Source: Limnochordales bacterium (GTDB lineage Bacteria; Bacillota; Limnochordia; Limnochordales; ZCTH02-B6). From it: 43,061 nt of DNA. The notes beneath the pieces are model-generated. The model had not been told where the DNA came from and did no database searches. It was given only the letters and a program-made list of their open reading frames with translations. Position 1 is the stretch's first letter. Each line of letters begins with the position of its first letter. Position numbers and translations under genes: made by a program. The stretch is from the NCBI GenBank assembly GCA_036562195.1, contig DATCKT010000160.1, forward strand, positions 1 to 43,061, read 5' to 3'. Positions 22,353-42,966 of this stretch are shown here, piece by piece.

Positions 22353-22393
22353 TCCGCGTCACCTTCTGTCGTCGTCCTGGCGTCCACGGCCGC

Positions 22394-24884: not shown

Positions 24885-25637
24885 CTACGCCGGCGGCGCC
24901 GAAAGGGCAAAGGCGGCCGCTTCGTCCAGGATCAGCGTCACGTCCGGGTGGCGCTGCAGGACGGAGGCGGGCACCGCCTCGGTCACCGGCCCATTCACCG
25001 CCCGGGCCACGGCGGCGGCCTTCTCCCGGCCCGAAGCCAACAACAGCACTCGGCGGGCGGCCATGATGGTCCCAATCCCCATGGTGATGCCGAATTCAGG
25101 CACATCCCGCAAGTCCTGGAACCCGTAGCCGCGATAGTTGGCCAGCCGCGTTTCTTCCGTCAGGCGCACCAAGTGTGTGGCGGAGTCAAAGGGCGTGCCC
25201 GGTTCATTGAAACCGATATGGCCGTTGCTGCCGATGCCCAGCACCACCAGGTCCAGTCCCCCGGCGGCGCGGATTTGGTCCTCGTACGCCCGGCACGCAG
25301 CGTCCGGGTCCGCGCCCGACACGCCCGCGTCGGGCCAGTGGGCGTTGCCGGGGGCGACGTTGACGTGCGCGAGCAGATGGGTGCACATAAAATAGGCAAA
25401 GCTCATGGGGTGCTCGGGCCCAAGGCCCCAGTACTCGTCCAGATTGAAGGTGACGACGCCCGCAAAATCCAGCTCCCCGGCTTGGTGCAGGCGCACCAGC
25501 TCCCGGTACATGCCCTTGGGGGTATTGCCCGTCGGCAAGCCCAGGACGATGCGGGGCCCCGCCTTGATGGCTGCCGCCACGGCGGCCGCGGCGTTGAGGC
25601 TCATCTGCTCGTAGTCCGGAACAACGATGACGTTCAT
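24885..25637 (-). CDS. nagB: Glucosamine-6-phosphate deaminase
   Basis: Track ORF. LGLPTGNTP and LGIGSNGHIGFNEPG motifs. ATGA overlap with the nagA stop. Confidence 0.93.
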   Translation of the reverse strand: MNVIVVPDYEQMSLNAAAAVAAAIKAGPRIVLGLPTGNTPKGMYRELVRLHQAGELDFAGVVTFNLDEYWGLGPEHPMSFAYFMCTHLLAHVNVAPGNAHWPDAGVSGADPDAACRAYEDQIRAAGGLDLVVLGIGSNGHIGFNEPGTPFDSATHLVRLTEETRLANYRGYGFQDLRDVPEFGITMGIGTIMAARRVLLLASGREKAAAVARAVNGPVTEAVPASVLQRHPDVTLILDEAAAFALSAPPA

Positions 25638-26860
25638 CGCGAAAACACAATCTCTCCCGCCACCATAGTCATACGTACCGCGAGATCCTCGTCCAGAATG
25701 ACTAGGTCGGCCTCGTATCCGGGGGCCAGGCGGCCCAACCGGCCGGCGACGCCCAGGCCCTCCGCCGGCGTCCAGGTGGCCATCCCGACGGCCTCTACCA
25801 GCGGCACGCCCACCCGCCGCACCATGACCCGCACCGCCTCGGCCATGGTCAGCACGCTGCCCGCCAGCGCCGACGGGTCATCCCTGAGCCGCGCTTGGCC
25901 GTCCCGCACCACCACGGGCAGATCTCCCAGGGTGTATTCCCCCGGCGGGCAGCCGACCGCCCGCATGCCATCGGTGACCAGCATGACGCCGGCCGCTCCC
26001 TTGCACCGGTACAAAAGCCGCATGGCGCCCGGATGCACGTGCACGCCGTCGGCGATCAGCTCCGCCCGCACGCGCCCGTCCACGAGCACGGCGCCCAGGC
26101 AGCCCGGCGCCCGGTGGTGCAGGCCTTCCATGGCATTGAAGGCGTGGGTGGCCGTCCGCGCACCCGCGTCCACCGCCGCCAGCGCCTGTTCGTAGGTCGC
26201 GGCCGTATGGCCGATGGAGACGTTCACCCGCCGCTCCGCCAGCCACCGGATGGCGGCCTCGGCCCCCGGCAGCTCCGGCGCCAGGGTTAAGGTCACCAGG
26301 GCGGGCCCCAGCGCGGCGTACAGCCGCGCCAGCTCCGCCAAATCCGGCGGACGCAGGTAGGCGGCGTTGTGGGCCCCGCGCCGCGCCGGGTTGAGGTAGG
26401 GGCCTTCTAGATGCACACCCAGCAGCCGGGCGCCGCCCGTGCTCACCCCCACCATGGGCCGCACCACGGCGGCCACGTCCAGCAAATGCTCCAGCGGCGC
26501 GCTCATGGTAGTAGCCACCAGGCGAGTGGTGCCATGCGCGGCATGGGTGCGGGCCATTTGCGCGATTGACCCCGCGGTGGCGTCCATCACGTCCGCGCCG
26601 CCTCCCCCATGGACGTGGCCGTCGATGAAGCCGGGGCAGATGTAGCCCCCGCCCGCGTCCAGCTCCTCGGCCCCGCGGGTTTGGTCCAGGAAACCGCCCG
26701 CGCCCGCGGCCGCGCCGGCGTAGACGATCTTGTCGCCGGCGATGATCACGAGCCCGTCGTCCACCAGCCCCTCCGGCGTCACCAGCCGGCCGTTCCCAAT
26801 CACGATGCGGCGGCCCGGTGCCCGCCCCGGACCCGCGCCGACGCCGATCTCCCGATTCAT
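25634..26860 (-). CDS. nagA: N-acetylglucosamine-6-phosphate deacetylase
   Basis: Track ORF 25634..26875 trimmed to ATG 26860, which has a GGGAGG RBS and an ATGA overlap with the upstream gene's stop. GFIDGHVHGGGG metal-binding motif. Confidence 0.9.
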   Translation of the reverse strand: MNREIGVGAGPGRAPGRRIVIGNGRLVTPEGLVDDGLVIIAGDKIVYAGAAAGAGGFLDQTRGAEELDAGGGYICPGFIDGHVHGGGGADVMDATAGSIAQMARTHAAHGTTRLVATTMSAPLEHLLDVAAVVRPMVGVSTGGARLLGVHLEGPYLNPARRGAHNAAYLRPPDLAELARLYAALGPALVTLTLAPELPGAEAAIRWLAERRVNVSIGHTAATYEQALAAVDAGARTATHAFNAMEGLHHRAPGCLGAVLVDGRVRAELIADGVHVHPGAMRLLYRCKGAAGVMLVTDGMRAVGCPPGEYTLGDLPVVVRDGQARLRDDPSALAGSVLTMAEAVRVMVRRVGVPLVEAVGMATWTPAEGLGVAGRLGRLAPGYEADLVILDEDLAVRMTMVAGEIVFSR

Positions 26861-27894
26861 GGTCCCGCCTCCCACTGCACCACGTGCAGGCGGCTGGGGT
26901 AGCCGACCACGGCCAGCTGCAGGCCCCCGTTGCCCAGGAAATCCGCCGCCGCCACCGACGCCACGGCCCAGCCCAGGCTGCGGCCCGATTCGGCCAAGAG
27001 CTCAAAGGCACTGGTCAATCGGTATACGGCCGCCCGGCCGCGGTCGTCGGCCACGGCCAGAAGGTGCCGGGCTCCGGAGGGCACGGCGGACAGGGCAAAG
27101 GCCGGCGCTTCCCGCAGCGTTTCCTCATGTAGCCGCTCGTAGCCCGCCGCCCCCCACGTCCACACCTGAATGTCACCGGGATTGCGGCCGGTCCCCTCCT
27201 CCACCACCAGCTCCCACACGCCGTCGCCGTTCAAATCGCCGCCGGTGATGGCCCGCACCCGGCCGATGGTGGGGGTTTCCCAGAGCAGGCGAAAGCGGCC
27301 GTTGCGCCAACCCAAAAGCTCGACGCCCTTCTGGGGCACGTTGTCCTCCACCGCGTGCTGGCGGCTCATGGCGATGAGGTCGTAAGGATGGTGCGGGTGG
27401 CGCACGACGCCGATTTCTTCCGGCGCACCCCAACCGGCTTCTTCGTGAATGAGTTGCATGCGGCCGTCTTGCCACGCGAACAGGCGCAGGCGGGTGCGGG
27501 TGAGGACCGCGATCTGGGCCCGGCCCAGGCCGGTGAAGTCGCCCACCGCTACGGCCAGGTGGCTGACGGGCTCCCACAAATTGGGGCTTTGCCACACCAC
27601 CTCGAAGCGGCGGCCCGTCCAGCGCAAGACGTAGATGTAGTTCTCTTGGGATTCGTAGTTGCGCCCCGACAGCACCAGCTGCGCCCGGCCCTCGCCGGTG
27701 ACGTCGCCCGCTGCCACCTGGAGCAGCGTCTGCATGAGGAAGCCATCCTGCCGGTACACTTCGGGGAGATCGGGCACGGCCAAGGCGGGAGGGGCCGCGG
27801 CCGCCGCCCACACGGTAAGGACTGCCAAGACCATGAGGAGGGCCGGGGCAAGGAGGACGCAGGCCGCCCAGGCCCGATGGCGATGATGCCACAT
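26857..27894 (-). CDS. Secreted or membrane-anchored FG-GAP/VCBS-like beta-propeller repeat protein, function unknown
   Basis: Track ORF. N-terminal signal/anchor (AACVLLAPALLMVLAVLTVWAAAAA). Repeated GDVTGEG, GDFTGLG, GDLNGDG and ADFLGNGG motifs spaced about 60-80 aa apart. Confidence 0.7.
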   Translation of the reverse strand: MWHHRHRAWAACVLLAPALLMVLAVLTVWAAAAAPPALAVPDLPEVYRQDGFLMQTLLQVAAGDVTGEGRAQLVLSGRNYESQENYIYVLRWTGRRFEVVWQSPNLWEPVSHLAVAVGDFTGLGRAQIAVLTRTRLRLFAWQDGRMQLIHEEAGWGAPEEIGVVRHPHHPYDLIAMSRQHAVEDNVPQKGVELLGWRNGRFRLLWETPTIGRVRAITGGDLNGDGVWELVVEEGTGRNPGDIQVWTWGAAGYERLHEETLREAPAFALSAVPSGARHLLAVADDRGRAAVYRLTSAFELLAESGRSLGWAVASVAAADFLGNGGLQLAVVGYPSRLHVVQWEAGP

Positions 27895-27980: not shown

Positions 27981-29996
27981 TTAAGCCCGCATGTGCCAGG
28001 CGTGGGCCCATATCTCCCGGTCCCGCAGCCCAGCGTGCCGTTCCAGGTAGTCGACGACCGTCCACACGTACGTGGCGTGGGACCAGGTCAGGGGTGCGAC
28101 CGACAAGGGCTGGCCGGTTTCGGGGTGGTACTGCTCCGCCAGCACGCCGCTGGGCAAGGCACGGTCCACCACCCAATCCAACAGCTCCACCGCCGGGCGC
28201 AAATCCTGCGGCCGGTTGGCGGTGGCGATGTACCACTGGGCGAGCCACAGGGTGCAGATGACCCAAGGGTTTCCCGGTATGCGTTGGAAATCGTCGCTGC
28301 GGCAGAAATAGTAGTCCCGGTAGTAGCGGGCGATGCCGCCCACGGGCGTTTTGACCCAGAGCGCATCCCGCACCTGCTCCATGGTCTTGGCCACCCGCGG
28401 ATCCGTTGCCGGCAAGACGCCGAACAGAAACAAGCCGGCCACGCTGCTCTCGGGCGTCGGGTCGGGCGCGAGGCTGCCGTCTCCGCGCATGACCAGTCCC
28501 CGCAGAAACCGGCTTTCCTCGGCCGAGTAAAGGTGCCGCTCGATGGCGTCCCGCACTTGCCGGGCCGCGTCGCGGTAGCGCCGGGAGCGGTCGGTCTCGC
28601 CCCATAAGGCGGCCAGGCGGGCGGCTGCCCGGAGCCCCCCGCACACCGCGGCCGCGGTGAAGGTAAACACCCCCCGGCGCTCCTCCCACAGGTCGTAGCT
28701 GTCCAAAGGCAGTCCGGTGCACGCGTCCCGGTAGTCAGCCAGGAAGTCCGCGGCCGGTTTGATGAGCGGTTCGTAGAGGGACTCGATGAACTCCAGATCC
28801 CGCTCCAACCGGAAAAACTGGCCCAAAGCCCACAGCACCAGCGCCGTCTCGTCCTCTTGGATGGGCAGCTGCACCTGGCCGTGCACCAGCCACGGGTGCC
28901 AGCTGGAGCCCACCGACCGGTCGGGGTTGTACTTGTGCCAGAAAAACCCCCCGGGCGCCAGCACCTGCGCGCAGAAGCGGTAAAAGGCCCGCGTCAGCTC
29001 CGGGTAGCCGGCCCGGTCCAGAGCGTGAGCCACCAGCGCCCCGTCCCGGGGCCACATGTAGCTGTAGTGGTCCCGGTTGAACTGGAGGATGTCCGAATCG
29101 TTGGCGGCCAAGATCGCGCCCTCATGGTCGATTTGGGTCCGGATGAGGAGCAGGCTGCGCTTGAACAACCGCACCACCGGCGGCGGCAGGTCGGCCCAGT
29201 CCCGGTCGCGCTTGGTGACCCACGCCCGCCAGTAGGCGCGGGTCTCTTCCAAGAGCGCTGCGAGGCCCCGTTCGCGCACCTCGGCGTGCAGCCGCCGGAC
29301 CTGCTCAAAGCTGCGCCCCACGGCGACCCAGTGATGGACCACCTGCCGGCCCCCCGCGGGCAACAGCAGCCGGAAGCTCATGACCGAGTCCACCGACCCT
29401 TGCGCGATGGGGTTCCCCTCCAGGTGCCCATCTTCAGCGTCCCGCCACGTGCCCTCCGCGCCGCCGAACCGCTTGGTGCCGGTCGCGTACTGGAACAGCC
29501 CCTGCTGGCCCGCGGGAGCGTCGGGAAGCCAGCCGGCGATGAGGAAACACTTGTCCCGTTTGTAGTGGAGGACGCCGTCGACGCTGGGGTCATACAGGGC
29601 CGTGTCGCCGATGTCCGTCTGGTCCACGCACAGGTCGTACGGGAAAAAGACGCGCACTTCCCGGGCGGCAGGCGCCAGGTTGTGCACCTCCACTCTTTTC
29701 AGGTACACATCCCGGCGGACGTGGACCGCGTCCTGGGCCACCAGCCGCAACGCCAGCTCGTCGTGGGTCAGCGTCGCCCGGGTGACGAGGGTGTCTTCCT
29801 CGTATTCCAGCGACCGCTGCCAGGCCGGCCCGCCCACCCAGCTGAACCGGCCGTCCACCCAGACGCCGACGGGGTTCTTGTGCCCGCACAACTGGTTGAG
29901 CATCCCGACGTGGGGATAGTACAGGTCCCGCATGGCGTAGTCGCCGTCGAACGTGATCAAAAGCCGCCCGTTGCCCACCACCAAAGGCCGCGGCAT
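27981..29996 (-). CDS. Glycoside hydrolase family 15 (glucoamylase/glucodextranase/trehalase-like), cytoplasmic
   Basis: Track ORF 27981..30521 trimmed to ATG 29996 (MPRPLVVGNGRLLITFDG, GGAGGGG RBS). YSYMWPRDGA and DLWEERRG motifs characteristic of GH15. No signal peptide. Confidence 0.85.
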   Translation of the reverse strand: MPRPLVVGNGRLLITFDGDYAMRDLYYPHVGMLNQLCGHKNPVGVWVDGRFSWVGGPAWQRSLEYEEDTLVTRATLTHDELALRLVAQDAVHVRRDVYLKRVEVHNLAPAAREVRVFFPYDLCVDQTDIGDTALYDPSVDGVLHYKRDKCFLIAGWLPDAPAGQQGLFQYATGTKRFGGAEGTWRDAEDGHLEGNPIAQGSVDSVMSFRLLLPAGGRQVVHHWVAVGRSFEQVRRLHAEVRERGLAALLEETRAYWRAWVTKRDRDWADLPPPVVRLFKRSLLLIRTQIDHEGAILAANDSDILQFNRDHYSYMWPRDGALVAHALDRAGYPELTRAFYRFCAQVLAPGGFFWHKYNPDRSVGSSWHPWLVHGQVQLPIQEDETALVLWALGQFFRLERDLEFIESLYEPLIKPAADFLADYRDACTGLPLDSYDLWEERRGVFTFTAAAVCGGLRAAARLAALWGETDRSRRYRDAARQVRDAIERHLYSAEESRFLRGLVMRGDGSLAPDPTPESSVAGLFLFGVLPATDPRVAKTMEQVRDALWVKTPVGGIARYYRDYYFCRSDDFQRIPGNPWVICTLWLAQWYIATANRPQDLRPAVELLDWVVDRALPSGVLAEQYHPETGQPLSVAPLTWSHATYVWTVVDYLERHAGLRDREIWAHAWHMRA

Positions 29997-30089
29997 CGAC
30001 ACCCCTCCGCGTGTAGGTTGCGGCGCAGTGCCGTCATAGATTCCGCGCCCCGGACACATCCTACACACGGTCAAGGGGGGCGGGAGCCG

Positions 30090-31118
30090 GTGACAGCCGC
30101 GCCATGGGAAACCGAAGCCCACGCCTGGGTGGGCCGCCCGGGCCCGGGACAAACCGGTCCGGGCCCGGGGCAAACCGGTCCGGGCCCGGGAGACATCGGC
30201 CTGGGCGCCGGGCCCCTGGCTGCCGGCAGCTCCTTCGCCGGGCACGGCCTGGGCGACGGGGCGGCCGGGGCGGACGTGTACCGGCAGGAAGCACAGCACC
30301 GCCCGCCCCACGGCGGCCTGGCGCCCGCCGGTGGGACCGACCCGGTGCGGGACGGACCCTATGAGCTGCCGCCCGGATACGGCACCGACCGGCTCACCCT
30401 GCTGGTGCGGGATCCCTGGTGCGTCTTCGCCTTCTGGGAAGTGACGGCCGCCAGCTGGCACGACGCGGCGCGCCGGCTGGCATCCGACGGTGAAACGCCT
30501 CAGCTGGTCCTGCGCCTCCACGATCTGACCGGCGCTCAGGGTGCAGACGGCGGGACGTACACGGACCTCGTGGTGTCATGGCGCGACCGCTGGTACATCC
30601 ACCTGGACCGGCCGGGCCGCACCCTGATCGCGGAGATCGGCGCCGGCACCTCCTGGAGCTTCGTGCCCATCGCCCGCTCCAACGTCGTCCACACGCCGCC
30701 GGGCACCGTGTCGGAATGGGCTGAGGCGGGCTGGATGTCGGTGGAGGCCGCGTACCGGCTGCTGTCCCCCGGGGCGTGGGGCGGGACCAGCCCCGGACTC
30801 TTCCTGCAGCGGGAGTGGCGCGCGGCGGCCGCGGGCAGCGGTTTCGCGCTGGCCCCTGCGAGCCCGGGCTACTGGCCCCTGCGCGCCGCCCCACAGGCGG
30901 CGTTGACGGTGGACGCCGAGCTCATCCTTTACGGCCGCGTGAGCGACCCCGGAGCCAACGTGCTGGTCCACGGCCAAGCGGTCCCCGTGCAACCCGACGG
31001 TTCCTTCCGGTTCCGGTGCTCCCTCCCCGACGGCACCGCGGTGCTCCCTGTGGAGGCCCGGTTTCCCGACGGCCGGCGCCAAGCGGTGACGCCGGTGGTC
31101 ACCCGAGAAACGTACTGA
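30090..31118 (+). CDS. DUF4912-like protein of unknown function
   Basis: 3' part of track ORF 28857..31118. The conserved core starts at ...YELPPGYGTDRLTLLVRDPWCVFAFWEV and ends with ...LILYGRVSDPGANVLVHGQAVPVQPDGSFRFRCSLPDG. The start is uncertain: GTG 30090 after AAGGGGGGCGGGAG, or GTG 30129 or 30345. Third-codon-position GC is high from about 30196 onward. Confidence 0.65.
   Translation: MTAAPWETEAHAWVGRPGPGQTGPGPGQTGPGPGDIGLGAGPLAAGSSFAGHGLGDGAAGADVYRQEAQHRPPHGGLAPAGGTDPVRDGPYELPPGYGTDRLTLLVRDPWCVFAFWEVTAASWHDAARRLASDGETPQLVLRLHDLTGAQGADGGTYTDLVVSWRDRWYIHLDRPGRTLIAEIGAGTSWSFVPIARSNVVHTPPGTVSEWAEAGWMSVEAAYRLLSPGAWGGTSPGLFLQREWRAAAAGSGFALAPASPGYWPLRAAPQAALTVDAELILYGRVSDPGANVLVHGQAVPVQPDGSFRFRCSLPDGTAVLPVEARFPDGRRQAVTPVVTRETY
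30138..30199. repeat. About 2.5 tandem copies of a 21-bp repeat (CCGGGCCCGGGRCAAACCGGT)
   Basis: Copies at 30138-30158 and 30159-30179 with one mismatch, plus a partial copy from 30180. In the plus frame they encode PGPGQTG-PGPGQTG-PGPGD. Each unit contains the palindrome CCGGGCCCGG. Confidence 0.85.
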
Positions 31119-31145
31119 CGGATCCTGGGCGAAGGAGGCGCGCCC

Positions 31146-32819
31146 TTGGCACAACCACAAGGGTATCTGGCCCTGGTGCTCCATGCCCACTTGCCGTTTG
31201 TGCGCCACCCCGAGCGCGAGGCGGTGCTGGAGGAAGACTGGCTGTTTGAAGCCATCACCGAGTGCTACCTGCCGCTTTTGAACGTTTTCGCCGGCTGGGA
31301 ACGGGATGGGGTGCCCTGGAAGCTGGCCATGTCCGTCACCCCCACCCTCGCGGCCATGCTGGGCGACCAACTGCTGCGGGAGCGCTACGTGCGCCACCTG
31401 GAGGGGCTCATCGCCCTGGCCGAGCAGGAGATGCAGCGCACGTCCACCGAACCCGCGTTTCATCGCCTGGCGCGCATGTACCACCGCAGGTTTCTGAGAG
31501 CGCGGCAGCAATTTGTCGAGGAGTACCGCGGCGACTTGCTGGGCGCGCTGCGCGGCTTTGCGGACACCGGCCGGCTAGAGCTGTTGGCCTCCGCCGCCAC
31601 CCACGGGTACTTGCCCCTCATGCATCCCCACCGCGCCGCGGTGCGGGCGCAGGTCGCGGTGGGCGTCGAGGCCCATCGCCGGGCCTTCGGGCGGGAACCC
31701 GCAGGCTTTTGGCTGCCCGAATGCGGCTACAGCCCGCCCGACGACGAGATCCTGGCCGGCTGCGGCGTCCGCTGGTTCATCGTGGAAACCCACGGCCTGC
31801 TGCACGCGCGGCCCCGGCCGCCCTACGCGGTGTTCACGCCCGTCTATTGCCCCGGCTCCGCCGTGGCCGCCTTCGGCCGCGACGTGGAATCGTCCAAGCA
31901 GGTATGGAGCGCGACCGAAGGCTACCCGGGCGACGGGGATTACCGGGACTTCTACCGGGACATCGGGTACGACCTGGACGACGACTACCTCCGCCCCTGG
32001 CTCAAGGCGGGCGTGCGCAAGCACACGGGCATCAAGTACTACCGGGTCACCGGGCCCACGGCGGCCAAAGCGCCCTATGACCCGGACGCCGCCCGGGAGA
32101 AGGCCGCCATCCACGCGGGCAACTTCATGTTCAACCGCCACAAGCAGGTGGAGTACCTGCGGGCCCACATGGACCGGCCGCCCATCGTGGTCGCCCCGTA
32201 CGATGCGGAGCTGTTCGGCCACTGGTGGTATGAAGGGCCCCAGTGGCTGGACTTCCTGGTGCGCAAGCTCGCCTACGATCAGGACACCCTCGCCCTCACC
32301 ACCCCCAGTGAGTACCTGGACCTGCACCCCCGCAACCCCGTGGCGCAGCCGTCCATGTCCAGCTGGGGCTACAACGGCTACAGCGAGGTGTGGCTCAACG
32401 GCGCCAACGACTGGATCTACCCGCACCTGCACATGGCGGCCGCGCGCATGGCGGAGCTGGCCGCGCGGCACCCGGCGCCCGACCCCCTCACCCGCCGGGC
32501 GCTCAATCAAGCCGCGCGGGAGCTCTTGCTCGCCCAAAGCAGCGACTGGGCGTTCATCATGAAGACGGGCACGATGGTGGAGTACGCGGTGCGGCGCACC
32601 AACGACCACCTGGGGCGGTTCGCGCGGCTGTACGAGCAGATCCAGGCGGGGGCGGTGGACGAGGGCTGGCTCGCCGACGTGGAGCGGCGGGACAACATCT
32701 TCCCGTGGCTGGACTACCGCGTGTACGCAGAAACCCCCGTGGCGGCGGCGCCACCCCCGGCCGGCACCAACGGCGCGTGGCTGCCGGTGCCCGCCGGGGC
32801 CCAACGGGCAGGCGCCTAG
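31146..32819 (+). CDS. Glycoside hydrolase family 57 enzyme, 1,4-alpha-glucan branching enzyme type
   Basis: Track ORF. TTG start with a GAAGGAGG RBS 7 nt upstream. N-terminal YLALVLHAHLPFVRHPE, nucleophile region GFWLPECGYSP, acid/base region APYDAELFGHWWYEGPQWL. Starts 27 nt after the DUF4912-like stop. Confidence 0.88.
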   Translation: MAQPQGYLALVLHAHLPFVRHPEREAVLEEDWLFEAITECYLPLLNVFAGWERDGVPWKLAMSVTPTLAAMLGDQLLRERYVRHLEGLIALAEQEMQRTSTEPAFHRLARMYHRRFLRARQQFVEEYRGDLLGALRGFADTGRLELLASAATHGYLPLMHPHRAAVRAQVAVGVEAHRRAFGREPAGFWLPECGYSPPDDEILAGCGVRWFIVETHGLLHARPRPPYAVFTPVYCPGSAVAAFGRDVESSKQVWSATEGYPGDGDYRDFYRDIGYDLDDDYLRPWLKAGVRKHTGIKYYRVTGPTAAKAPYDPDAAREKAAIHAGNFMFNRHKQVEYLRAHMDRPPIVVAPYDAELFGHWWYEGPQWLDFLVRKLAYDQDTLALTTPSEYLDLHPRNPVAQPSMSSWGYNGYSEVWLNGANDWIYPHLHMAAARMAELAARHPAPDPLTRRALNQAARELLLAQSSDWAFIMKTGTMVEYAVRRTNDHLGRFARLYEQIQAGAVDEGWLADVERRDNIFPWLDYRVYAETPVAAAPPPAGTNGAWLPVPAGAQRAGA

Positions 32820-32851
32820 CAGAGCGCGCAGGTGTGGAGGCGACCGGGCCG

Positions 32852-34195
32852 CTAGGGGCGCGGTCCGTTGCGGTTGGCCTGCGCCACGGCAGTGACGGGG
32901 GCGCGGGTTTCCGTGTACCGGCTAGGCGGCACCGTCACCAGGGCGTCCACCGAGGGCCACAGCTGCTCGGCTTCCGCCCGCCGGCGAGCCAAGGCCGCGT
33001 CCCACCGGGTCTCGGCCCACTCGGCCAGCACCTCTTCGTACACGGCCGCGGTCCGGGCGGCGATGTGCTCCCACGCGCAGTGCTCCTGCACGTGGCGCAG
33101 GGCGTTGCGGCGCAGCTTGTCGGCCAGCCCCGGCGCCGAGAGCAGTGCGACCACGTTGTGGGCCAGGGATTCGGCGTTGCCCGGCAGCGCCAAAAGGCCG
33201 TTGTGGCCGTGACGGACGATCTCTTGGAAACCGCCGGTGGCGGTCACCACCACCGGCGTGCCGACCGCCATGGCCTCCAGCGCCACGATGCCGAAGGGTT
33301 CATACAGGCTGGGAAACACGGCCACCTGGGCGGTGCGGAGAAAGCGGTCCCGGTCCCTGTCGTTGGCATAGCCGTAGAAGGCAACCCGGTCGGCGACGCC
33401 TAGGCGGTGGGCCTGGGCCTCCAGATCGGGGCGGGCGGGACCCTCGCCGGCGATGACGAACCGCGTCGCCGGGTGGCGCTCGAGGATCCGCGGCACCGCA
33501 TCCAGCAGGACATGCACGCCTTTTTCAAACACGAGCCGGCCCAGGAAGAACACCAGCGCCTCATGGGGCTCGGCGAAGCGGACCCGGAACGCCGCGTCCT
33601 GCTCGGGATCTACAGGTTCCTCGGGCACCGTCACCCCGTTGGGCACGACCCGGATCTTGTCGGCCGGCAGCTGGAAGACGCGGCGCACTTCTTCTTCCAT
33701 AAAGCGGCTGCAGCAGATGACCCGCCACGCCTCGTAGGTGAGCCACCACTCCACGCTGCCGATGTGGCGCTGCAAGTCGTTGTGCAGGCCGTTGTTGCGC
33801 CCGTGCTCCGTGGCGTGGATGGTGGCCACCAGGGGCACCGCCAGCCCGTGTTTCAGCGCCTTGCCCGCGTACGCCGCCAGCCAGTCGTGCGCGTGCACCA
33901 GGTCAAATCGCCGCCCGCACACAAGCAGGTGCAGGGCCCGCTCCACCATTTCCAGGTTGAGGCGCATCACCCAGCCGGGGAAGTCCAGCGGCGCTGGCCC
34001 GTGAACCGGCAGCCGCAGCACCTCCACGCCCGCGTCCCACTCGTGGGTGTCCGCGCCGGGCGCCTCCTGGGTGAGCACGGTGACCCGGTGTCCCAGCTTG
34101 GCCAGGGCCCGGCTGAGATGGCACACGTGGCGGGCAAGCCCCCCGACGACCCGGGGCGGGTATTCCCACGAGAGCATCAAAATGTGCCGCGTCAT
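32852..34195 (-). CDS. GT4-family retaining glycosyltransferase (glycogen-synthase-like alpha-glucosyltransferase)
   Basis: Track ORF. N-terminal ILMLSWEYPPRVVGGLARHV and the EX7E region PSLYEPFGIVALEAMAVGTPVV. ATGA overlap with the upstream CBS gene. Confidence 0.85.
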   Translation of the reverse strand: MTRHILMLSWEYPPRVVGGLARHVCHLSRALAKLGHRVTVLTQEAPGADTHEWDAGVEVLRLPVHGPAPLDFPGWVMRLNLEMVERALHLLVCGRRFDLVHAHDWLAAYAGKALKHGLAVPLVATIHATEHGRNNGLHNDLQRHIGSVEWWLTYEAWRVICCSRFMEEEVRRVFQLPADKIRVVPNGVTVPEEPVDPEQDAAFRVRFAEPHEALVFFLGRLVFEKGVHVLLDAVPRILERHPATRFVIAGEGPARPDLEAQAHRLGVADRVAFYGYANDRDRDRFLRTAQVAVFPSLYEPFGIVALEAMAVGTPVVVTATGGFQEIVRHGHNGLLALPGNAESLAHNVVALLSAPGLADKLRRNALRHVQEHCAWEHIAARTAAVYEEVLAEWAETRWDAALARRRAEAEQLWPSVDALVTVPPSRYTETRAPVTAVAQANRNGPRP

Positions 34196-34650
34196 CCGCT
34201 CGTTTCCTCCTGGTACGATCCATGCGTGAACAAGCGCACCACGTCGATGCGGTCAATCATGCCCGCCAGCCGACCCCCCTCGACCACGGGCAGGTGGCGC
34301 AAGCCGTGTTCGGTGAGGAAGCCGATGACCTGCTCCAGCGGCGCGTCCGGCGCCACCGTGTGCACGGCGCGGGCCATGATGTCTTTGGCCCGCACGCCGG
34401 CGATCTCCCTGAGCACCTCTTGGTGCAGGCGCCTCGGGCGCAGGTAGAGGTCCACGTCCAGAAACCGCACCCGGTTGGGCACAAGCAGCCGCAGGAACTC
34501 GGCGGCGGTGATCATCCCCACCAGCCGCTCCCCGTCCACCACCGGCACGCCGTCGACCCGATGGCGCACCATCAACGCGGCCACGTCACCCAGGGCGGTG
34601 TCTGGGGCGGCCGTCACCACCGCGGTCTGCATGAACTCCCGGACGATCAT
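34192..34650 (-). CDS. Stand-alone CBS-pair (Bateman domain) protein
   Basis: Track ORF 34192..34656 (TTG start). ATG 34650, with GGAGG 6 nt upstream, is the preferred start. Two CBS motifs (...VDGVPVVDGERLVGMITAAEF... and ...LRHLPVVEGGRLAGMIDRIDV...). Confidence 0.8.
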   Translation of the reverse strand: MIVREFMQTAVVTAAPDTALGDVAALMVRHRVDGVPVVDGERLVGMITAAEFLRLLVPNRVRFLDVDLYLRPRRLHQEVLREIAGVRAKDIMARAVHTVAPDAPLEQVIGFLTEHGLRHLPVVEGGRLAGMIDRIDVVRLFTHGSYQEETSG

Positions 34651-36910
34651 CGGCAACCTCCAGTTCCTCCGCCCACACCCGCAGCCACTCGGCGACGCTC
34701 CACGCCTGGGCGAAGCAGCCCCGGGGAACGTGCGGCGGGTCGCCGTCGAAGATCTCGGACACCTGCCCCAGCGCGCCCTCGCACCGCAAGTGGTGGCGCA
34801 GGGGTTCCAGCCGGACGCGGGCGGCGGCCACGGTCTCGGGCGTTCGCCCGTGACAGCGGAGAAACCCGCTGATGAAGGGACCCAGCAGCCAGGGCCAGAC
34901 CGTGCCCTGGTGATAGGCGGCGTCCCGCTGCCACTGGTCGCCCGTGTATCGCCCGCGGTACTCGGGGTCGCCGGGAGCCAGCGTACGCAACCCCACCGGT
35001 GTCAGCAAATCCCGTGCCACCCGTTCGAGGATGGCCCGCCCCCTGCGCCTCCCTACCACGGGAAAGGGCAGCGCTAGGGCCAGCAGTTGGTTGGGACGCA
35101 GCGGTTCGTGGGCGGGCGCACGGGCGGAGCCGGCTTGGGCGACGGCCGTAGGCTCCGCCCCGGCCCAAGAACCGGTGTCTTGGACCACGTCCCGCAGCCA
35201 CCCGTCGGGATGGGCGAACCGCCGGAGGAAACTGCGGCGGGCCGCTGCGGCCAGCCGTCCCCACTGGCCCGCGTCAGGACGGCCACACCTTCCCGCTAGG
35301 GTTTCCACCGCCCGCAGGGCGTTATACCACAGCGCATTGATCTCCACCGCCGCCCCCATGCGCGGCGTCACCACCCAGTCGCCCACCTTGGCGTCCATCC
35401 ACGTGAGCTGCACCCCCGGGTGCCCGGCGTAGACCAGTCCGTCGGAACCCACGTGGATGCCGTAGGCCGTGCCCCGTAGGTAATGCTGGAGAATGTCCGC
35501 GGCCGCAGGCAGCAGCTCGGCGCGGGTGGTAACGGTGTCACCCGTGGCGCACCAGTACTTCCACACCGCGTACACGAACCACAGCGAAGCGTCGGCCGCG
35601 TTGTAGGCGGCCGGTTCGCCGCCCCCCTCCCCGTGGTCGGCGAACCGGTTGGGCACCAGGCCCTCCCGCCGGTGGGCGGCGAACGTCAAGAGCACCTCCC
35701 GGGCCGCTTGGTGCCGGCCAGTGCACAAAAGCAGGCCCGGCAGGCTGATCATGGCGTCGCGGCCCCAATCGGTGAACCACGGGTAGCCGGCGATCAGCGT
35801 CGCTGCACGCGTCGTCCGCCGCCAGGCGACAAAGTCGTCGGCGGCCAGCGCCAGCCGCTGCCCATCGGGATCGCCCCCGGGTGCGGCCGCGGCCAGGCGG
35901 CGGCGGCGGTCCGCCGCCGCGCCGTAGGCGGCCTCCGCCCACACAAAGAGAGCCGCGGGCCCGTCGTGCCAAGGCGGGGCCGGTGCCCCGTCCCCGGGGG
36001 CTTCCTGCGGCTCCGGACGCGGGCAGTACCCGACGAGCACCGCGCTGTCGCCGCACCCTGCGAGCCGGATGTGAAAGGCGCCGGGACAGAAATGGTCTTC
36101 CACGTGATCCAGGCCCCGTTCGGCTTCCCACGCGTAGTGGAAGTTGTAATACCAAAGGCCGCCGGGGTCGTAGCGGGCACGGCCATCGGGCGCGCTGTCG
36201 CCGGCGCTGCCTGGACTGCCGGCCGCGAGGACCAGCGGCGGTGCGCCGGGGTATGCCGTGACGCGGGTTCCATACGGGAGGGTCTCCTGCCGGAACTCCC
36301 ACCCGGTGGCCCGAACGGTGTGATGGTAGTCCCGGCAATTGATGAAGGGCTTGAGCACCAGCTCCACGGAAGGGCCCGCCAGCAGGCGGTAGCGGGCCAC
36401 CGTCGCGTTTTGGCCCCGGACCATGAACAAGGTCCGCTCCACCAGCACGCCGTCCACGCTCCACAGCCACGTGGGGAACGGGTACAGCCGCCAAGACACG
36501 AGCCGCCGCCAGCCGTCGGGGTGCAGGAGGCCGCCGTAGTCGTGGTTGGCCAGGGGCCATTGACCCGCGGGCGTCCGCAGCCACTCCTCGGCGCCGGCCC
36601 ACAGCAGCCGGCGGTCCACGGGGGGCGCGAGGGCGGCGATGAGCCAGCCGTGGTAGCGGCGGGACGCCGCGCCCAAGACAGTGCCGCAGGCGAACCCGCC
36701 AAGGCCGTTGGTCACCAGCCATTCGGGCTGCTCGTGCAGGCTTGTCCCCGCTGCGGGCCGCCAGTGAATCTGTGCCTGCTCCCACAAGTCAGGAGTCCGC
36801 TCCCATTCCCCGGGCCAGCGCCCGTCCATAGGGTGAGGTCCGGAGGGACAGCGCAGGATGACGGTTTCGCCCGAGCAGTTCCAGCGGCGGGTGCGGGTGC
36901 GTTTGCCCAT
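34586..36910 (-). CDS. Amylo-alpha-1,6-glucosidase / archaeal-type glycogen debranching enzyme (GDE_N + GDE_C)
   Basis: Track ORF. EWLVTNGLGGFACGTV...RRYHGWL N-domain and IAGYPWFTDWGRDAMISLPGL catalytic-domain motif. The start is uncertain (ATG 36910 or ATG 36829; neither has a good RBS). The 3' end overlaps the CBS gene by about 65 nt. Confidence 0.85.
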   Translation of the reverse strand: MGKRTRTRRWNCSGETVILRCPSGPHPMDGRWPGEWERTPDLWEQAQIHWRPAAGTSLHEQPEWLVTNGLGGFACGTVLGAASRRYHGWLIAALAPPVDRRLLWAGAEEWLRTPAGQWPLANHDYGGLLHPDGWRRLVSWRLYPFPTWLWSVDGVLVERTLFMVRGQNATVARYRLLAGPSVELVLKPFINCRDYHHTVRATGWEFRQETLPYGTRVTAYPGAPPLVLAAGSPGSAGDSAPDGRARYDPGGLWYYNFHYAWEAERGLDHVEDHFCPGAFHIRLAGCGDSAVLVGYCPRPEPQEAPGDGAPAPPWHDGPAALFVWAEAAYGAAADRRRRLAAAAPGGDPDGQRLALAADDFVAWRRTTRAATLIAGYPWFTDWGRDAMISLPGLLLCTGRHQAAREVLLTFAAHRREGLVPNRFADHGEGGGEPAAYNAADASLWFVYAVWKYWCATGDTVTTRAELLPAAADILQHYLRGTAYGIHVGSDGLVYAGHPGVQLTWMDAKVGDWVVTPRMGAAVEINALWYNALRAVETLAGRCGRPDAGQWGRLAAAARRSFLRRFAHPDGWLRDVVQDTGSWAGAEPTAVAQAGSARAPAHEPLRPNQLLALALPFPVVGRRRGRAILERVARDLLTPVGLRTLAPGDPEYRGRYTGDQWQRDAAYHQGTVWPWLLGPFISGFLRCHGRTPETVAAARVRLEPLRHHLRCEGALGQVSEIFDGDPPHVPRGCFAQAWSVAEWLRVWAEELEVADDRPGVHADRGGDGRPRHRPG

Positions 36911-37119
36911 CGCCGACCGCTACTTGGCCGGAGGCGACGAAGCCGCCGCGGCCGAACGCGACCTGGAGCGGGCCTTTGCCCGGCCGATCCTGCGCGTGAC
37001 CATCGCCCCCGCCGACGGCGGTACCGCGGGCGCCGCCGGCCCGCCCACCTCTAGCATGCCAACGCCCCCGCCTTTCATGAGCGCCGCCAGCCCCCACGAC
37101 CCCTCGTCCAACGGCGCTC

Positions 37120-38163
37120 TCAGCGGCGGGAACCTAGCCGCGCCCGGCGCCACCACGCCGTCGCGCCCAGCATCACGAAGAGAAGCCCAGCCGCCCCCAA
37201 CACCGGCGTCGCCCAGGCCATCGCCGCCCGCCCTCCGCCTACGGGATGAATCAGGGCAGGGACCGCCGGCCCGCCGGCCGGCGCCGTAAAGGAACCCAGC
37301 TGCCGCGCTTGGTTGGGCCAAAAGCGGGGCGCCAGGAGGTCGATGACCTGCGGCACCGCCCCGGCGTCGTCGCCGCCGCCGAAGCTCCACTCGGTGGCCA
37401 CCGCCCGCACCGGACGATACCCGTCCTCGCCGAAGGGGTCGAACCCTCCCACCAGGACGTAGTACCGCCATGAGGGCTGGGGCGTGCCCAAGACGTCCTG
37501 CGGCACCGACGCGCGAATCGTGCGGCCGTCGGCCACGAGGCCCGCGGCCAGCCCGTCGGTCCACCCGGGTTCATCGGGCCCATCCCCGGCGCGATGCAGG
37601 CGCGTGCCGCCAAAGGGCGCGACCCGCAACCGCACGTCCCAAGCATGGTTCGGATCGAACCGCACCCGGGGGCCGGGGCGCAGCGGGCCGGTGTGCCCCG
37701 CGCCGGGGGTGGTGTCGATGTAGATGTCGATGAGCTGGTGGTGAAAGCCTTCGGGCGCGTCCCAGGGGTTGACCATGGCCCGGAACGTGAGGTCGAAATG
37801 CACGTGGTGCCCGCCGGTGCGGACCGCAAACGAGGTGAGGTCGAACAAGCCGGGCACAAAGGTGTGGTGGCCGGGATAGCGGTACCCGCCCGGGCCGCGG
37901 TCGTCCCCGACAGGGTCGTTCATCTGAAACACCGTTTTCTGCTGAGCCGGGGCGGTGTCCGCCAACGTGGGGACGCCGTCGGGCTGCCGGCGCCCGCCGG
38001 GATCCCAGATCCCCGCCGCGGCCGCCAGCATCACCGCCGCGACGCCCACACCCAGCGCTATGGCGGCCCACGAGATCGCGGGCCAGCGCCCGCTTCGCCG
38101 CCGGCGAAGCGTCGGCCGGCCCCGCTTCGCCCACCGCCCGCCACCGGGGCGTCCCGCCAACAC
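37120..38163 (-). CDS. Membrane-anchored protein with a glucodextranase C-terminal binding-module-like (Glucodextran_C) domain
   Basis: Track ORF 37120..38250 trimmed to GTG 38163, which has a GGGAGGGG RBS 5 nt upstream. N-terminal Arg-rich segment plus TM helix. Core NDPVGDDRGPGGYRYPGHHTFVPGLFDLTSFAV...NPWDAPEGFHHQLIDIYID. C-terminal TM helix plus RRARLGSRR tail. Confidence 0.7.
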   Translation of the reverse strand: MLAGRPGGGRWAKRGRPTLRRRRSGRWPAISWAAIALGVGVAAVMLAAAAGIWDPGGRRQPDGVPTLADTAPAQQKTVFQMNDPVGDDRGPGGYRYPGHHTFVPGLFDLTSFAVRTGGHHVHFDLTFRAMVNPWDAPEGFHHQLIDIYIDTTPGAGHTGPLRPGPRVRFDPNHAWDVRLRVAPFGGTRLHRAGDGPDEPGWTDGLAAGLVADGRTIRASVPQDVLGTPQPSWRYYVLVGGFDPFGEDGYRPVRAVATEWSFGGGDDAGAVPQVIDLLAPRFWPNQARQLGSFTAPAGGPAVPALIHPVGGGRAAMAWATPVLGAAGLLFVMLGATAWWRRARLGSRR

Positions 38164-38312
38164 GCCGACCCCTCCCGGAGTCGTTCCTATGCGACGCGGA
38201 CGCCCCGCATGCCCCGAGGACGCGACACGGCGGGGGCGGGCATCCGGCACACCCGCCGCACGCCCCGCATGCCGCGGGACAGGGCAGCGCGGCGCTGGGA
38301 AGGCTGGAGCGG

Positions 38313-38372
38313 TCAGAACGGACGAGGCGGCCAGAACGGGCTGTGGGCAGCCAAGAACGGGCAGTGGGCGAG
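38313..38372. repeat. Three imperfect direct repeats containing AGAACGG, spaced 18-21 bp apart
   Basis: tCAGAACGGacgaggcgg / cCAGAACGGGCtGTGGGCag / cCAAGAACGGGCaGTGGGCgag. They lie in the gap between the hemC stop and the next gene. Confidence 0.6.
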
Positions 38373-38391
38373 GACAGGCGCGTGAAGGGCG

Positions 38392-39498
38392 TCACGGGCT
38401 CCGCCGGGCCAAAAGCTCTGCCGCCCCTTGCGCCAGCAACCGGTCGGCCACCGCGCGGGCCAGATCGCGCGCCGCTTCCTCGGCGGCCGCCACCGCCTCC
38501 TCCCAATCCGGTGAGGCAGCGGCCCGGCCATGGCCGGGCATCGGGGCATGCGCGGCCTTCTGCACCAGGGCTGGCGCGGGCCGGCTATGGCCGGTAACGA
38601 TAAGGCGGGTCCCCTCCGGATCTGCGACGGAGGCCTGCAAGTGCAGGCGGCGGGCCGGGCCTTCCCCTTGCCAGACGGCCAGGGCTCCGATGGGCACGTG
38701 GCAGCCGCCTCCCAACCGAGCCAGAAGTTCCCGCTCGGCCGTCACCGCGACGCGCACGTGCGGGTCATCGATGAGGGCCACGGCCGCCCGCGCCTCGGCG
38801 TCATCCGCCCGCACCTGCACCGCCAGCGCCCCTTGGCCCGGCGCCGGCAGGCAATGTTCCGGCGCGAGGGGCTGGACCCGGTCATCCCACAAGCCCAGGC
38901 GGCGCAAGCCGGCCGCGGCCAGTACCACCGCGTCCAATCCTTCGGACTGCAGCTTGCGCAGGCGGGTGTCGACGTTGCCCCGGATAGGCACGAAGGTCAG
39001 GTCGGGCCGCCAATGGCGCAGGTGGGCGATGCGGCGGGGCGAGCCGGTCCCTATCCGGCCCCCGGACGGCAGGAAGGGCAACGGCCGGCTGGCGGCGCCG
39101 GCCGCCCGCCCACGGTCGGGATTGGGAGTGCCCGGCCCACCGCTGGCGGTGCGGGCTACGACCGCCACGTCGCGCGCGTCGTCCCGCACAGGGTAGGCGG
39201 CCAGCACCAGGTCGGGCGGCTGCTCGCCGGGCAAGTCCTTCAAGCTATGGACGGCCACGTCCACTTCGCCCCGGCGCAGGGCCTCCTCGACGGCGCGCAC
39301 AAAGACGCCCCGCTGGCCGAAGCGGGCCAGCGGGGTTTCCCGATCGAGGTCGCCCTCCGTGCGGATTTCCCGCAAGGTCAACCGCAATGGCAGGTTGTAC
39401 TGACGGGCCGCCGCCTCCAGCTGCTCCATGACCCAGCGCGCCTGCCAGACGGCAAGGGGGCTGGGGCGAGTGCCCACCACCAGTTCCCGCGGCTGCAA
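38392..39498 (-). CDS. hemC: Porphobilinogen deaminase (hydroxymethylbilane synthase)
   Basis: Track ORF. TTG start with a GGGGAGGGG RBS. GTRPSPLAVWQA, GTGSPRR, and the cofactor Cys in GGGCHVPIG. Carries low-complexity insertions. Confidence 0.92.
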   Translation of the reverse strand: MQPRELVVGTRPSPLAVWQARWVMEQLEAAARQYNLPLRLTLREIRTEGDLDRETPLARFGQRGVFVRAVEEALRRGEVDVAVHSLKDLPGEQPPDLVLAAYPVRDDARDVAVVARTASGGPGTPNPDRGRAAGAASRPLPFLPSGGRIGTGSPRRIAHLRHWRPDLTFVPIRGNVDTRLRKLQSEGLDAVVLAAAGLRRLGLWDDRVQPLAPEHCLPAPGQGALAVQVRADDAEARAAVALIDDPHVRVAVTAERELLARLGGGCHVPIGALAVWQGEGPARRLHLQASVADPEGTRLIVTGHSRPAPALVQKAAHAPMPGHGRAAASPDWEEAVAAAEEAARDLARAVADRLLAQGAAELLARRSP

Positions 39499-39525
39499 TG
39501 GACCGAACCCCTCCCCGCCCCGCCG

Positions 39526-40830
39526 TTAGCCGAACCGCCGCTGGGCGGTGGCCTGCAGTTCCCGATCTACGCCGAAGAGCTGCGCCGCCGTATCAGCGAA
39601 CCGCCAACCCTCCGGCGAGTGGGCCTGCTCCTTGAGGCGCACCATCGGCTCGTGCAAGAGCTTGTTGACGATGGCCGCGCTCATGGCCCGGATCCGTTCT
39701 TTGTCCGCCTCCGGCAAGTGATCCAGGCGGCGGAGCACCTTGTCCAGCTCCTGGGTGCGGATCTCCTCGGCTCGCCGGCGGAGCACCGCGATGACGGGCG
39801 CCACCGCCCGCTGGCCGTACCAGGCCCAGAACTCCCGCACTTCCTCATCGACGATGGCTTCGGCCTGGTCCATCCGCTGGCGCCGCTCCGCCAGCGTCGA
39901 GTCCACCACCGCGTACAAATCGTCCACGTTATAAACATACACGCCCGGCAGTTCCTGCACCGCCGGGTCCACGTCCCGGGGCACGGCCAGGTCAATGAAG
40001 TACAGCGGGCGGCCGCGGCGCCGCTCCAAGACCCCTCGCACCAGGGCCGCGTCGATGATGGGCTCGGGAGCGCCGGTGGAACTGATGACGAGGTCGGCCG
40101 CGGCCAGGCCGTCGGCCAGCGCGGTCAGCGGCAGCTCCGACCAGCCGTAGCTTTGGGCCAGCTGCGACGCCCGCTCCAAGGTGCGGTTCGCGATCCGCAC
40201 CCGCGCCGGGCCCTTCCGGGCCAAGTGGCGGGCCACCAGCTCCGCCACCTTGCCGGCGCCCACCAGCAGCACCTCTTTTTCGGCCAAGGAGGGGATGAGC
40301 CGGGCCGCGAGCTTGACGGCGGCGTGGCTGATGGACGCCGCTCCTTCCCCGATGGCCGTTTCGGCCCGGGCCCGTTTGCCCGCCCGCAGCGCCGCCTCAA
40401 ACAGGCGCGTCACATGGGCGCCCGCGGTGCCCGCCTGCTGGGCCAGGCGCAGGGCGGCGCGGACTTGGCCCAGGATCTGGGCTTCACCGATGAGCATGGA
40501 ATCCAAGCCGGCCGCCACCCTGGCCAGATGGCGAGCCGCGGCCACGCCGCTGTAGTGGTACAAGTACGGCAGGACGGCCTCGCGGGGCTGTCCCGCAAAG
40601 GCGCACAGGAACCCCACCACCGCCTCCCGCGCCTGCTCATGGTCGTCGGCCGCGACGTACACTTCCGTCCGGTTGCAGGTGGAGAGGATGGCTGCTTCGG
40701 AGAGCGCGGCGGCACCGGCCAGGCGCCGCAAATGTACGGGCACCTGGTCGGGTCCAAACGCCAGCCGCTCGCGCACCGCCACAGGGGCGGACTTGTGGTT
40801 GAGGCCGACCAAGATGATGTGCATGTCCAA
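39526..40830 (-). CDS. hemA: Glutamyl-tRNA reductase
   Basis: Track ORF. LVGLNHKSAPVAVRE, catalytic Cys in STCNRTEVY, NADPH site LLVGAGKVAE. The start may be ATG 40824. Confidence 0.95.
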   Translation of the reverse strand: MDMHIILVGLNHKSAPVAVRERLAFGPDQVPVHLRRLAGAAALSEAAILSTCNRTEVYVAADDHEQAREAVVGFLCAFAGQPREAVLPYLYHYSGVAAARHLARVAAGLDSMLIGEAQILGQVRAALRLAQQAGTAGAHVTRLFEAALRAGKRARAETAIGEGAASISHAAVKLAARLIPSLAEKEVLLVGAGKVAELVARHLARKGPARVRIANRTLERASQLAQSYGWSELPLTALADGLAAADLVISSTGAPEPIIDAALVRGVLERRRGRPLYFIDLAVPRDVDPAVQELPGVYVYNVDDLYAVVDSTLAERRQRMDQAEAIVDEEVREFWAWYGQRAVAPVIAVLRRRAEEIRTQELDKVLRRLDHLPEADKERIRAMSAAIVNKLLHEPMVRLKEQAHSPEGWRFADTAAQLFGVDRELQATAQRRFG

Positions 40831-40849
40831 CAGTTATTCTACCACGTCG

Positions 40850-42962: not shown

Positions 42963-42966
42963 GGCT

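Follow-up and report, generated by a model that had tools for sequence, protein, structure and literature searches.

In the classical glycogen operon, GlgC-GlgA-GlgB-GlgX-GlgP, the synthase, branching, debranching and chain-end-degrading functions are encoded together and include an allosteric GlgC. Reviews also list a non-classical glycogen route, GlgC-Rv3032-GlgB (PMC12525153, PMC6686919), and the pairing of a family GT4 glycosyltransferase with a family GH57 enzyme is already in the literature as the "non-classical Rv3032 pathway" (PMC6686919, PMC12525153, PMC9041414). In Mycobacterium tuberculosis, the Rv3030-Rv3032 locus carries a methyltransferase gene (Rv3030) and co-directional GH57 and GT4 genes; archaeal glycogen clusters (Sulfolobus; Picrophilus, with GT4, GH133 and GH57) combine GH15, GH57, GH133 and a glycosyltransferase, the role of GT4 therein being one that, according to the review concerned, "requires clarification" (PMC11046441); and the closest characterized relative of the GH57 protein considered here, AmyC of Thermotoga maritima, has been studied alone in vitro. 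Here we describe a locus of seven genes in a 43,061-nucleotide stretch of DNA (the whole of contig DATCKT010000160.1; hereafter, the window) from the metagenome-assembled genome of a bacterium of the order Limnochordales, encoding a GH15 protein, a DUF4912 protein, a GH57 protein, a GT4 glycosyltransferase, a CBS-pair protein, a debranching enzyme of the GDE (GH133) type and a Glucodextran_C-like membrane protein. It represents a variant, specific to its lineage, of a non-classical α-glucan system already known and is otherwise an ordinary metabolic locus; its new part is a conserved, undescribed DUF4912-GH57 module, which is worth following up.

The locus resembles the classical operon in that synthase, branching, debranching and chain-end degradation are encoded together, but it uses GT4 in place of GT5, GH57 in place of GH13, GH133 in place of the GH13 enzyme GlgX and GH15 in place of the GT35 phosphorylase, and no allosteric GlgC is found in the window. 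With Rv3030-Rv3032, it shares a homologous GT4 next to a homologous GH57+BE_C protein of the loop-less type; however, the two genes are convergent here, neither a methyltransferase corresponding to Rv3030 nor an acyltransferase accompanies them, and a DUF4912 gene, which the mycobacterial locus lacks, precedes GH57, with GH133, GH15 and CBS genes in addition. The archaeal clusters share GH15, GH57, GH133 and a glycosyltransferase with the window, whose GDE passes the "archaeal type" model, whereas their GH57 is of the amylase type, that of the window being of the BE_C branching-enzyme type (AmyC-like) and encoded in a bacterial host beside DUF4912 and CBS partners. AmyC and the window GH57 both lack the flexible loop and the β5-β6 strands and have the same catalytic residues.

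Taking family assignments and gene neighborhoods together, we consider it probable that the locus serves the synthesis and turnover of a cytoplasmic, glycogen-like α-1,4/α-1,6-glucan by a non-classical route of the Rv3032 type. In the proposed route, GT4 would extend α-1,4 chains from nucleoside diphosphate (NDP)-glucose, which would be made elsewhere in the genome and, in most relatives, by an NTP-transferase/phosphoglucomutase fusion encoded directly after GT4. The loop-deficient GH57, together with the DUF4912 protein, would then add or remodel α-1,6 branches, the latter acting as a non-catalytic partner with two β-sandwiches in glucan binding and/or localization. GH133 would debranch the polymer, GH15 would free glucose from the chain ends, and the CBS-pair protein may tie the balance of synthesis and breakdown to the adenylate status. 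The sugar donor, the polymer structure and the roles of the DUF4912 and CBS proteins in this scheme are those that we infer.

The GT4-GH57 pair and its described homologs

The GT4 protein contains Glycos_transf_1/Glyco_transf_4 domains and an N-terminal match to Glyco_transf_5 (PF08323) of 74 bits, above the cut-off, and an N-terminal starch-synthase-like motif is common to this protein and Rv3032. The two proteins are 38% identical over 394 residues (E 1e-71, 220 bits), the identity of the Rv3032 sequence used as query resting on an M. tuberculosis entry that it retrieved at 100% identity and on the gene order around that entry, whereas the best match among GT4 enzymes of solved structure reaches 104 bits (sucrose-phosphate synthase), with GlgM at 90 bits. 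The locus of the retrieved protein (L087) has the order methyltransferase, GH57+BE_C and GT4, in agreement with the published order of Rv3030-Rv3032 (PMC4555173), and the window GH57 is 32% identical to Rv3031, the neighbor of Rv3032 (E 2e-55). Thus, the pairing that a preliminary description of this DNA had likened to the methylglucose lipopolysaccharide (MGLP) locus proves to reflect true homology of both proteins and not just a common family label. We propose that the GT4 is an Rv3032-like retaining glucosyltransferase and a candidate α-1,4-glucan synthase; with ADP-glucose as donor, a Rhodococcus relative, 71% identical to Rv3032, elongates glycogen in vitro (bioRxiv 10.1101/2023.02.13.525685). 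Identity of the window GT4 as GlgM (maltose-1-phosphate synthase, TIGR02149) was rejected on a score of 157.7 bits against a curated cut-off of 302.4.

That this is an α-glucan locus devoid of classical glg genes, as had been noted before, holds for the window. A query with the NTP-transferase/phosphoglucomutase fusion gave no tblastn match to the window at E ≤ 1e-3 that would indicate GlgC or another NTP-transferase, and no ADP-glucose pyrophosphorylase (GlgC, NTP_transferase + LbH) is present among the open reading frames (ORFs) of the window. A Moorella GT5 query matched in the window just the C-terminal half of the GT4 (24% identity), which itself scores 100 bits against the glgA model TIGR02095 with its cut-off of 328. 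No ORF for a GH13 GlgB or a GT35 GlgP was seen in the window on inspection of the translations, as distinct from a hidden Markov model (HMM) scan of all ORFs, Pfam having been run on the locus and its flanks.

The GH57 protein comprises GH57 and BE_C domains with the catalytic residues Glu192 and Asp353, both of which are kept in 83 of 83 relatives. It matches T. maritima AmyC (2b5d) with an E-value of 7.5e-144 and the branching enzymes of Thermococcus, Pyrococcus and Thermus far less well; its alignment has gaps at β5-β6 and at the flexible loop relative to the T. kodakarensis, P. horikoshii and T. thermophilus enzymes and none relative to AmyC. The flexible loop of 17-22 residues and the β5-β6 strands that mark "true" glycogen branching enzymes (PMC9291813) are absent from it. 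By these features, it is a branching-enzyme-type protein of the AmyC-like, loop-deficient class; this class makes up 92% of GH57 branching-enzyme-like sequences (Xiang et al. 2021, PMC9291813). AmyC itself shows weak branching and strong hydrolysis and was first described as an intracellular α-amylase (PMC6616209). The neighboring GH57 proteins of other genomes are likewise loop-less (81 of 83), the exception being a second paralog in one Limnochordia genome (L004/L005). There, the second GH57+BE_C gene (L004, 8242-9843, minus strand) lies by GH15 and encodes a 16-17-residue insertion at the site of the flexible loop; on its own strand no DUF4912 gene adjoins it, and it is divergent from the single DUF4912 gene of that locus, which lies directly upstream of the loop-less paralog on the other strand.

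Neighborhoods of GT4 and the DUF4912-GH57 module

A GT4 scan of one genome per species (GTDB) gave at least 598 matching stretches, almost all from Bacillota among those returned, and 80 loci from different species were analyzed with 10-kb flanks by tblastn, ORF clustering, Pfam and a DUF4912 HMM; the counts given below are to be read with the fact that taking the best 80, in the GT4 and the DUF4912 scans alike, favors relatives of the window proteins. An NTP_transferase-LbH-phosphoglucomutase fusion (~825 aa), the N-terminal half of which has UTP-glucose-1-phosphate uridylyltransferase as its best match (E 5e-60), is encoded directly downstream of GT4 in 50 of the 80 loci. Within 10 kb of GT4, DUF4912 occurs in 37 loci and a GH57 of the same loop-less type in 36, and all four genes (GT4, fusion, DUF4912 and GH57) co-occur in 23. 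In ~15/80, the gene just upstream of GT4 encodes a stand-alone CBM53/CBM25 starch-binding protein, and a Glucodextran_C-like gene lies upstream of GT4, within the synteny from alr to GT4, in 7/80; GH15 is within 10 kb in 3/80, and CBS and GDE are near GT4 in 1/80 (L007, the closest relative), being specific to the closest lineage. The layout in the window looks like the canonical arrangement of GT4, fusion and, on the opposite strand, GH57 and DUF4912, minus the fusion and plus GDE-CBS upstream. In Moorella-type loci, GT4 is accompanied by GH13 enzymes and a GalT-like gene as well as by a GT5 synthase, and a 4-α-glucanotransferase is also among the neighbors in other species. These neighbors, namely nucleotide-glucose supply, starch-binding modules and GT5 synthases, place the loop-deficient GH57 in α-glucan biosynthesis and argue against its belonging to an unrelated pathway.

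Two further kinds of neighbor were observed. A GalT-like gene (GalP_UDP_transf/DUF4921/DUF4931), possibly an alternative route of nucleotide-glucose supply, lies by GT5/GT4 synthases and DUF4912-GH57 in L001/L002 (Neomoorella humiferrea), L021, L043, L146, L153 and L161. Directly upstream of GT4 in two metagenome-assembled genomes (MAGs) of Bacillota is an APH/RIO-type kinase-like gene of ~356-412 aa (L008, 8608-9846; L009, 8816-9886); the APH fold includes maltokinases, and such a protein could feed the glucan pathway.

In 32 of the 34 evaluable GT4-anchored loci, DUF4912 and GH57 adjoin on the same strand, DUF4912 being downstream in L035 and otherwise upstream. The GH57 genes without DUF4912 (n = 4) are each truncated by the end of a contig or of the locus, and of the DUF4912 genes without GH57, three are cut by a contig end and two (in L060 and L076) are divergent from GT4, with no GH57 nearby. 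In an independent, DUF4912-anchored scan of metagenome loci, to which no taxonomy is attached, GH57 directly follows in 46 of 58 evaluable loci with a median gap of ~53 nt, and these loci also hold GT5 GlgA-like (15), fusion (9), GalT-like (5) and Rv3032-like GT4 (5) genes.

The DUF4912 protein of the window (DUF4912, E 2.9e-23) consists of a low-complexity G/P-rich N-terminus, the DUF4912 β-sandwich, an S/G linker and a weakly matching Glucodextran_B-like β-sandwich at the C-terminus (E 1.7e-6). Its AlphaFold2 model contains two confident β-sandwich domains (pLDDT > 90), for which Foldseek returned just generic FnIII/Ig folds and no assignment to a carbohydrate-binding module. A DUF4912 profile search yielded 11,187 representatives at 50% clustering, commonly with the same architecture of variable N-terminus, DUF4912, S/G linker and Glucodextran_B-like domain, and with Rho_N in 23 of the 99 scanned. 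An N-terminal membrane anchor is present in 13 of the 37 GH57-adjacent proteins of Bacillota, and some ten more carry long Lys/Ser/Thr-rich tails. Among the long representatives scanned, none was a DUF4912-GH57 fusion protein, whereas combinations of Rho_N with DUF4912 and of PBP_like_2 with DUF4912 repeats were seen; two of the latter (P0210 and P0245; 1,300-1,540 aa) have an N-terminal PBP_like_2 domain, resembling phosphate-binding proteins, followed by five or six tandem DUF4912 domains and no obvious link to glycogen. The N-terminus varies greatly among relatives, and in the window the 5′ part of the gene includes three tandem 21-nt repeats (30138-30213) encoding GPGPGQT-type repeats. Literature searches on DUF4912/PF16258 found nothing relevant.

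For the DUF4912 protein, we infer the part of a non-catalytic partner, binding glucan and/or GH57 and positioning the latter; the variable N-terminal anchors would fit such an adaptor role. More specifically, and only tentatively, it may be a non-catalytic subunit that the loop-deficient GH57 enzymes lack when taken alone, binding the glucan and/or the enzyme through its two β-sandwiches and tethering it by a membrane anchor, a basic tail or Rho_N (HeH).

Gene organization and variable members

The gene map was built from third-position G+C content and ORF analysis, and the families were assigned by Pfam with curated cut-offs (Table 1); all seven family calls of the preliminary description lie above these cut-offs, and the tight packing that it reported was also found. 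The stop codon of the CBS gene overlaps the GT4 start (ATGA), the GDE and CBS genes overlap by 65 nt with the CBS ATG start at 34650 or by 71 nt with a TTG start, and 27 nt separate DUF4912 from GH57. These GDE-CBS-GT4 overlaps imply co-transcription, probably with translational coupling. DUF4912 and GH57 are on the plus strand and the remaining five genes on the minus strand, with DUF4912 divergent from GH15 across 93 nt, GH57 convergent with GT4 across a 32-nt gap and GDE 209 nt distant from the Glucodextran_C gene; the seven genes therefore form at least four transcription units.

Table 1 Features of the α-glucan locus in the window
Feature	Coordinates	Strand	Basis
GH15	27981-29996	-	Pfam Glyco_hydro_15
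Divergent intergenic region GH15/DUF4912	29997-30089	.	
DUF4912 protein, 342 aa	30090-31118	+	Pfam; NCBI annotation likewise 342 aa
GH57 + BE_C	31146-32819	+	Pfam
GT4	32852-34195	-	Pfam
CBS pair	34192-34656	-	Pfam CBS x2
GDE (GDE_N + GDE_C)	34586-36910	-	Pfam
Glucodextran_C membrane protein	37120-38250	-	Pfam
hemC	38392-39498	-	

The two flanks named earlier, hemA-hemC and rapZ-yvcK-whiA-gap, are present by Pfam: the first comprises hemC, hemA, nadE and alr, and the second rapZ, yvcK (CofD), whiA and gap, with nagB-like, nagA-like and FG-GAP genes between rapZ and GH15. The term "island" given to the locus does not hold, nor does horizontal acquisition: the DNA is ~70% G+C throughout, the locus (~0.68-0.75) equals its flanks with no compositional break, and its place between alr and nagA-nagB-rapZ-yvcK is kept in distant Bacillota, so that it is ancestral and not acquired. 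In the Bacillota MAGs L008, L009 and L004, whose GT4 is ~57% identical, the order alr...Glucodextran_C...GT4...GH57/DUF4912...nagA-nagB...rapZ-yvcK-whiA is retained (window 20345-27894 and 38392-43061). Elsewhere in the window, its housekeeping part contains a tmRNA (13569-13933, minus strand) and six tRNA genes (4587-6224, minus strand), unrelated to the glucan locus; these are the only Rfam matches in the window, none falling in the locus.

In the region between GH15 and DUF4912, a block of ~55 nt (~30035-30089, GTGCCGTCATAGATTCCGC...GGACACATCCTACACACGGTCAAGGGGGGCGGGAGCC) recurs almost unchanged in L088 and L090, where the DUF4912 N-termini have diverged, and it is possibly a promoter or operator that both genes share. 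The region showed no sigma-70 consensus, and scans for promoters and terminators did not rise above chance. An RNA structure at the inverted repeat 30007-30020/30057-30070 was considered and rejected, the repeat being broken in L090 and showing no covariation.

The GH15 gene starts with the ATG at 29996, which has a GGAGGGG ribosome-binding site, and not at the ORF start (30521). Its product matches Glyco_hydro_15 (E 2.6e-24), scores 322 bits against TIGR01577 (cut-off 820), falls far under the cut-offs of the glucoamylase and trehalase equivalogs and has dextran dextrinase and a bacterial glucoamylase (1lf6) as its best PDB matches (~1e-10); it is thus predicted, from a match at the family level only, to be an exo-glucosidase of the glucoamylase/oligosaccharide-amylase type, encoded by an apparently monocistronic gene. 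GH15 adjoins DUF4912-GH57 also in L004, L020, L028, L037, L088, L090 and L163. The GDE protein matches GDE_N and GDE_C (E 5e-115 and 1e-67), exceeds the cut-off of the archaeal-type debranching enzyme model TIGR01561 (406.1 against 364.15 bits) and matches the C-terminal domains of the eukaryotic GDE in the PDB; it is assigned as a GH133-type amylo-α-1,6-glucosidase, encoded by the first gene of the GDE-CBS-GT4 unit.

Three members without an assigned role had been regarded as coupled to the enzymes. This stands for DUF4912, which lies beside GH57 in most loci, but is not supported for all three. The CBS-pair protein (CBS x2, E 3.8e-29) belongs to no specific NCBIfam family and is found beside GT4 elsewhere in L007 only, with the same overlap; CBS and GDE were accordingly rejected as general partners of GT4 (1/80 loci). 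It is possibly an adenylate-sensing regulator, and we speculate that such sensing would replace the missing allosteric GlgC in this lineage. The Glucodextran_C protein (E 2.9e-57; residues 777-947 of glucodextranase 1ug9, E 2e-14) has transmembrane segments at 56-83 and 342-365 and an Arg-rich N-terminus, whereas no membrane segment is predicted in any of the remaining six. Since its domain lies between the two helices and the Arg-rich N-terminus is cytoplasmic, Glucodextran_C is predicted to face outward, which, for glycogen in the cytoplasm, is the wrong side of the membrane and makes its membership doubtful; its adjacency to GT4 could be inherited gene order, because the macro-synteny from alr to rapZ-yvcK is common to distant Bacillota. 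The parts of Arthrobacter glucodextranase are encoded here by three separate genes, GH15 (for the catalytic part), DUF4912 (its C-terminal domain, 30900-31118, corresponding to domain B) and Glucodextran_C (for domain C); this likeness may be a coincidence, the domain B match being weak (28 bits).

Assessment of the proposed route and its significance

Several points weigh against a glycogen-like product of the Rv3032-type route. The window encodes no NDP-glucose pyrophosphorylase, the arrangement of all seven genes is seen in the closest relatives only and there in parts (L007 and L088), and the literature yielded no biochemical study of the route in any member of Bacillota. As to the enzymes, loop-deficient GH57 proteins show little or no branching on amylose, and Xiang et al. 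(2021), who called their in vivo role unknown, put forward that they do not belong among the glycogen enzymes (PMC9291813). The Rv3032-like enzyme of Rhodococcus (RjoGlgAb) is a poor glycogen synthase with low efficiency on glycogen (bioRxiv 10.1101/2023.02.13.525685), and the presence of a classical GT5 synthase next to GT4 in the Moorella-type loci suggests that the role of GT4 is not simply redundant with that of glycogen synthase.

Some of these observations would suit a specialized small α-glucan, either MGLP-like or primed on a compatible solute, which the preliminary description had favored over ordinary glycogen: GT4 and GH57 are homologous to the MGLP enzymes Rv3032 and Rv3031, the loop-deficient GH57 enzymes act poorly on amylose (PMC9291813), RjoGlgAb has a low efficiency on glycogen, and some genomes hold GT4 alongside a GT5 synthase. 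However, no methyltransferase, acyltransferase, GpgS or GpgP equivalent was found in the locus or its flanks, whereas L087 has a methyltransferase adjacent; no equivalent of Rv3030 or Rv3034c is present, and an MGLP-like product is not supported, for the absence of tailoring genes in the locus or flanks. Moreover, the core arrangement in Bacillota comes with NDP-glucose supply and starch-binding modules, the neighbors elsewhere being a CBM53 protein, an NDP-glucose supply gene, GH15, 4-α-glucanotransferase and GT5, with DUF4912-GH57 also beside GT5, and the GH133 and GH15 encoded here are catabolic enzymes of the type acting on polymers. A specialized glucan is therefore less likely than a glycogen-like storage glucan, and we regard it as unlikely.

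Slightly further down in probability, and rather improbable, is a mainly catabolic maltodextrin/starch locus, in which GH15, an AmyC-like GH57 amylase and GH133 would degrade an imported glucan captured by Glucodextran_C, GT4 being unrelated. The strongly hydrolytic AmyC, with its first description as an intracellular α-amylase (PMC6616209), the predicted outward orientation of Glucodextran_C and the share of hydrolases (three of the seven proteins) speak for degradation; yet the locus encodes no sugar transporter, a hydrophobic segment of the membrane or signal type being predicted in Glucodextran_C alone, the partners that GH57 has kept in evolution serve biosynthesis (GT4 or GT5 with nucleotide-sugar supply), and GH15 and GDE are variable members and not part of the core. 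Least probable of all is that the seven genes are unrelated units standing side by side through inherited chromosomal order, for although only GT4 and DUF4912-GH57 recur together (against 1/80 for CBS/GDE, 3/80 for GH15 and 7/80 for Glucodextran_C), the macro-synteny alr...nagA-nagB-rapZ-yvcK is ancestral and the genes are spread over two strands in at least four transcription units, six of the seven families have α-glucans as substrates or ligands, GDE, CBS and GT4 overlap, and GH15 lies beside DUF4912-GH57 in several independent lineages.

The synthesis and turnover of a glycogen-like glucan by an Rv3032-type route thus remains the reading that we prefer, and much of Bacillota seems to store a glycogen-type glucan by means of GT4, GH57 and the pyrophosphorylase/mutase fusion. 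The locus and its relatives also provide a testable lead on the in vivo role of the loop-deficient GH57 enzymes, an acknowledged question (PMC9291813). If DUF4912 is indeed their missing subunit, this would explain the near-inactivity of these enzymes when assayed alone and would put them in glycogen-type synthesis. Should the DUF4912 protein activate or localize GH57, the view of branching outside the GH13 family would have to be revised, and its action on GH57 could matter for enzymatic starch modification.

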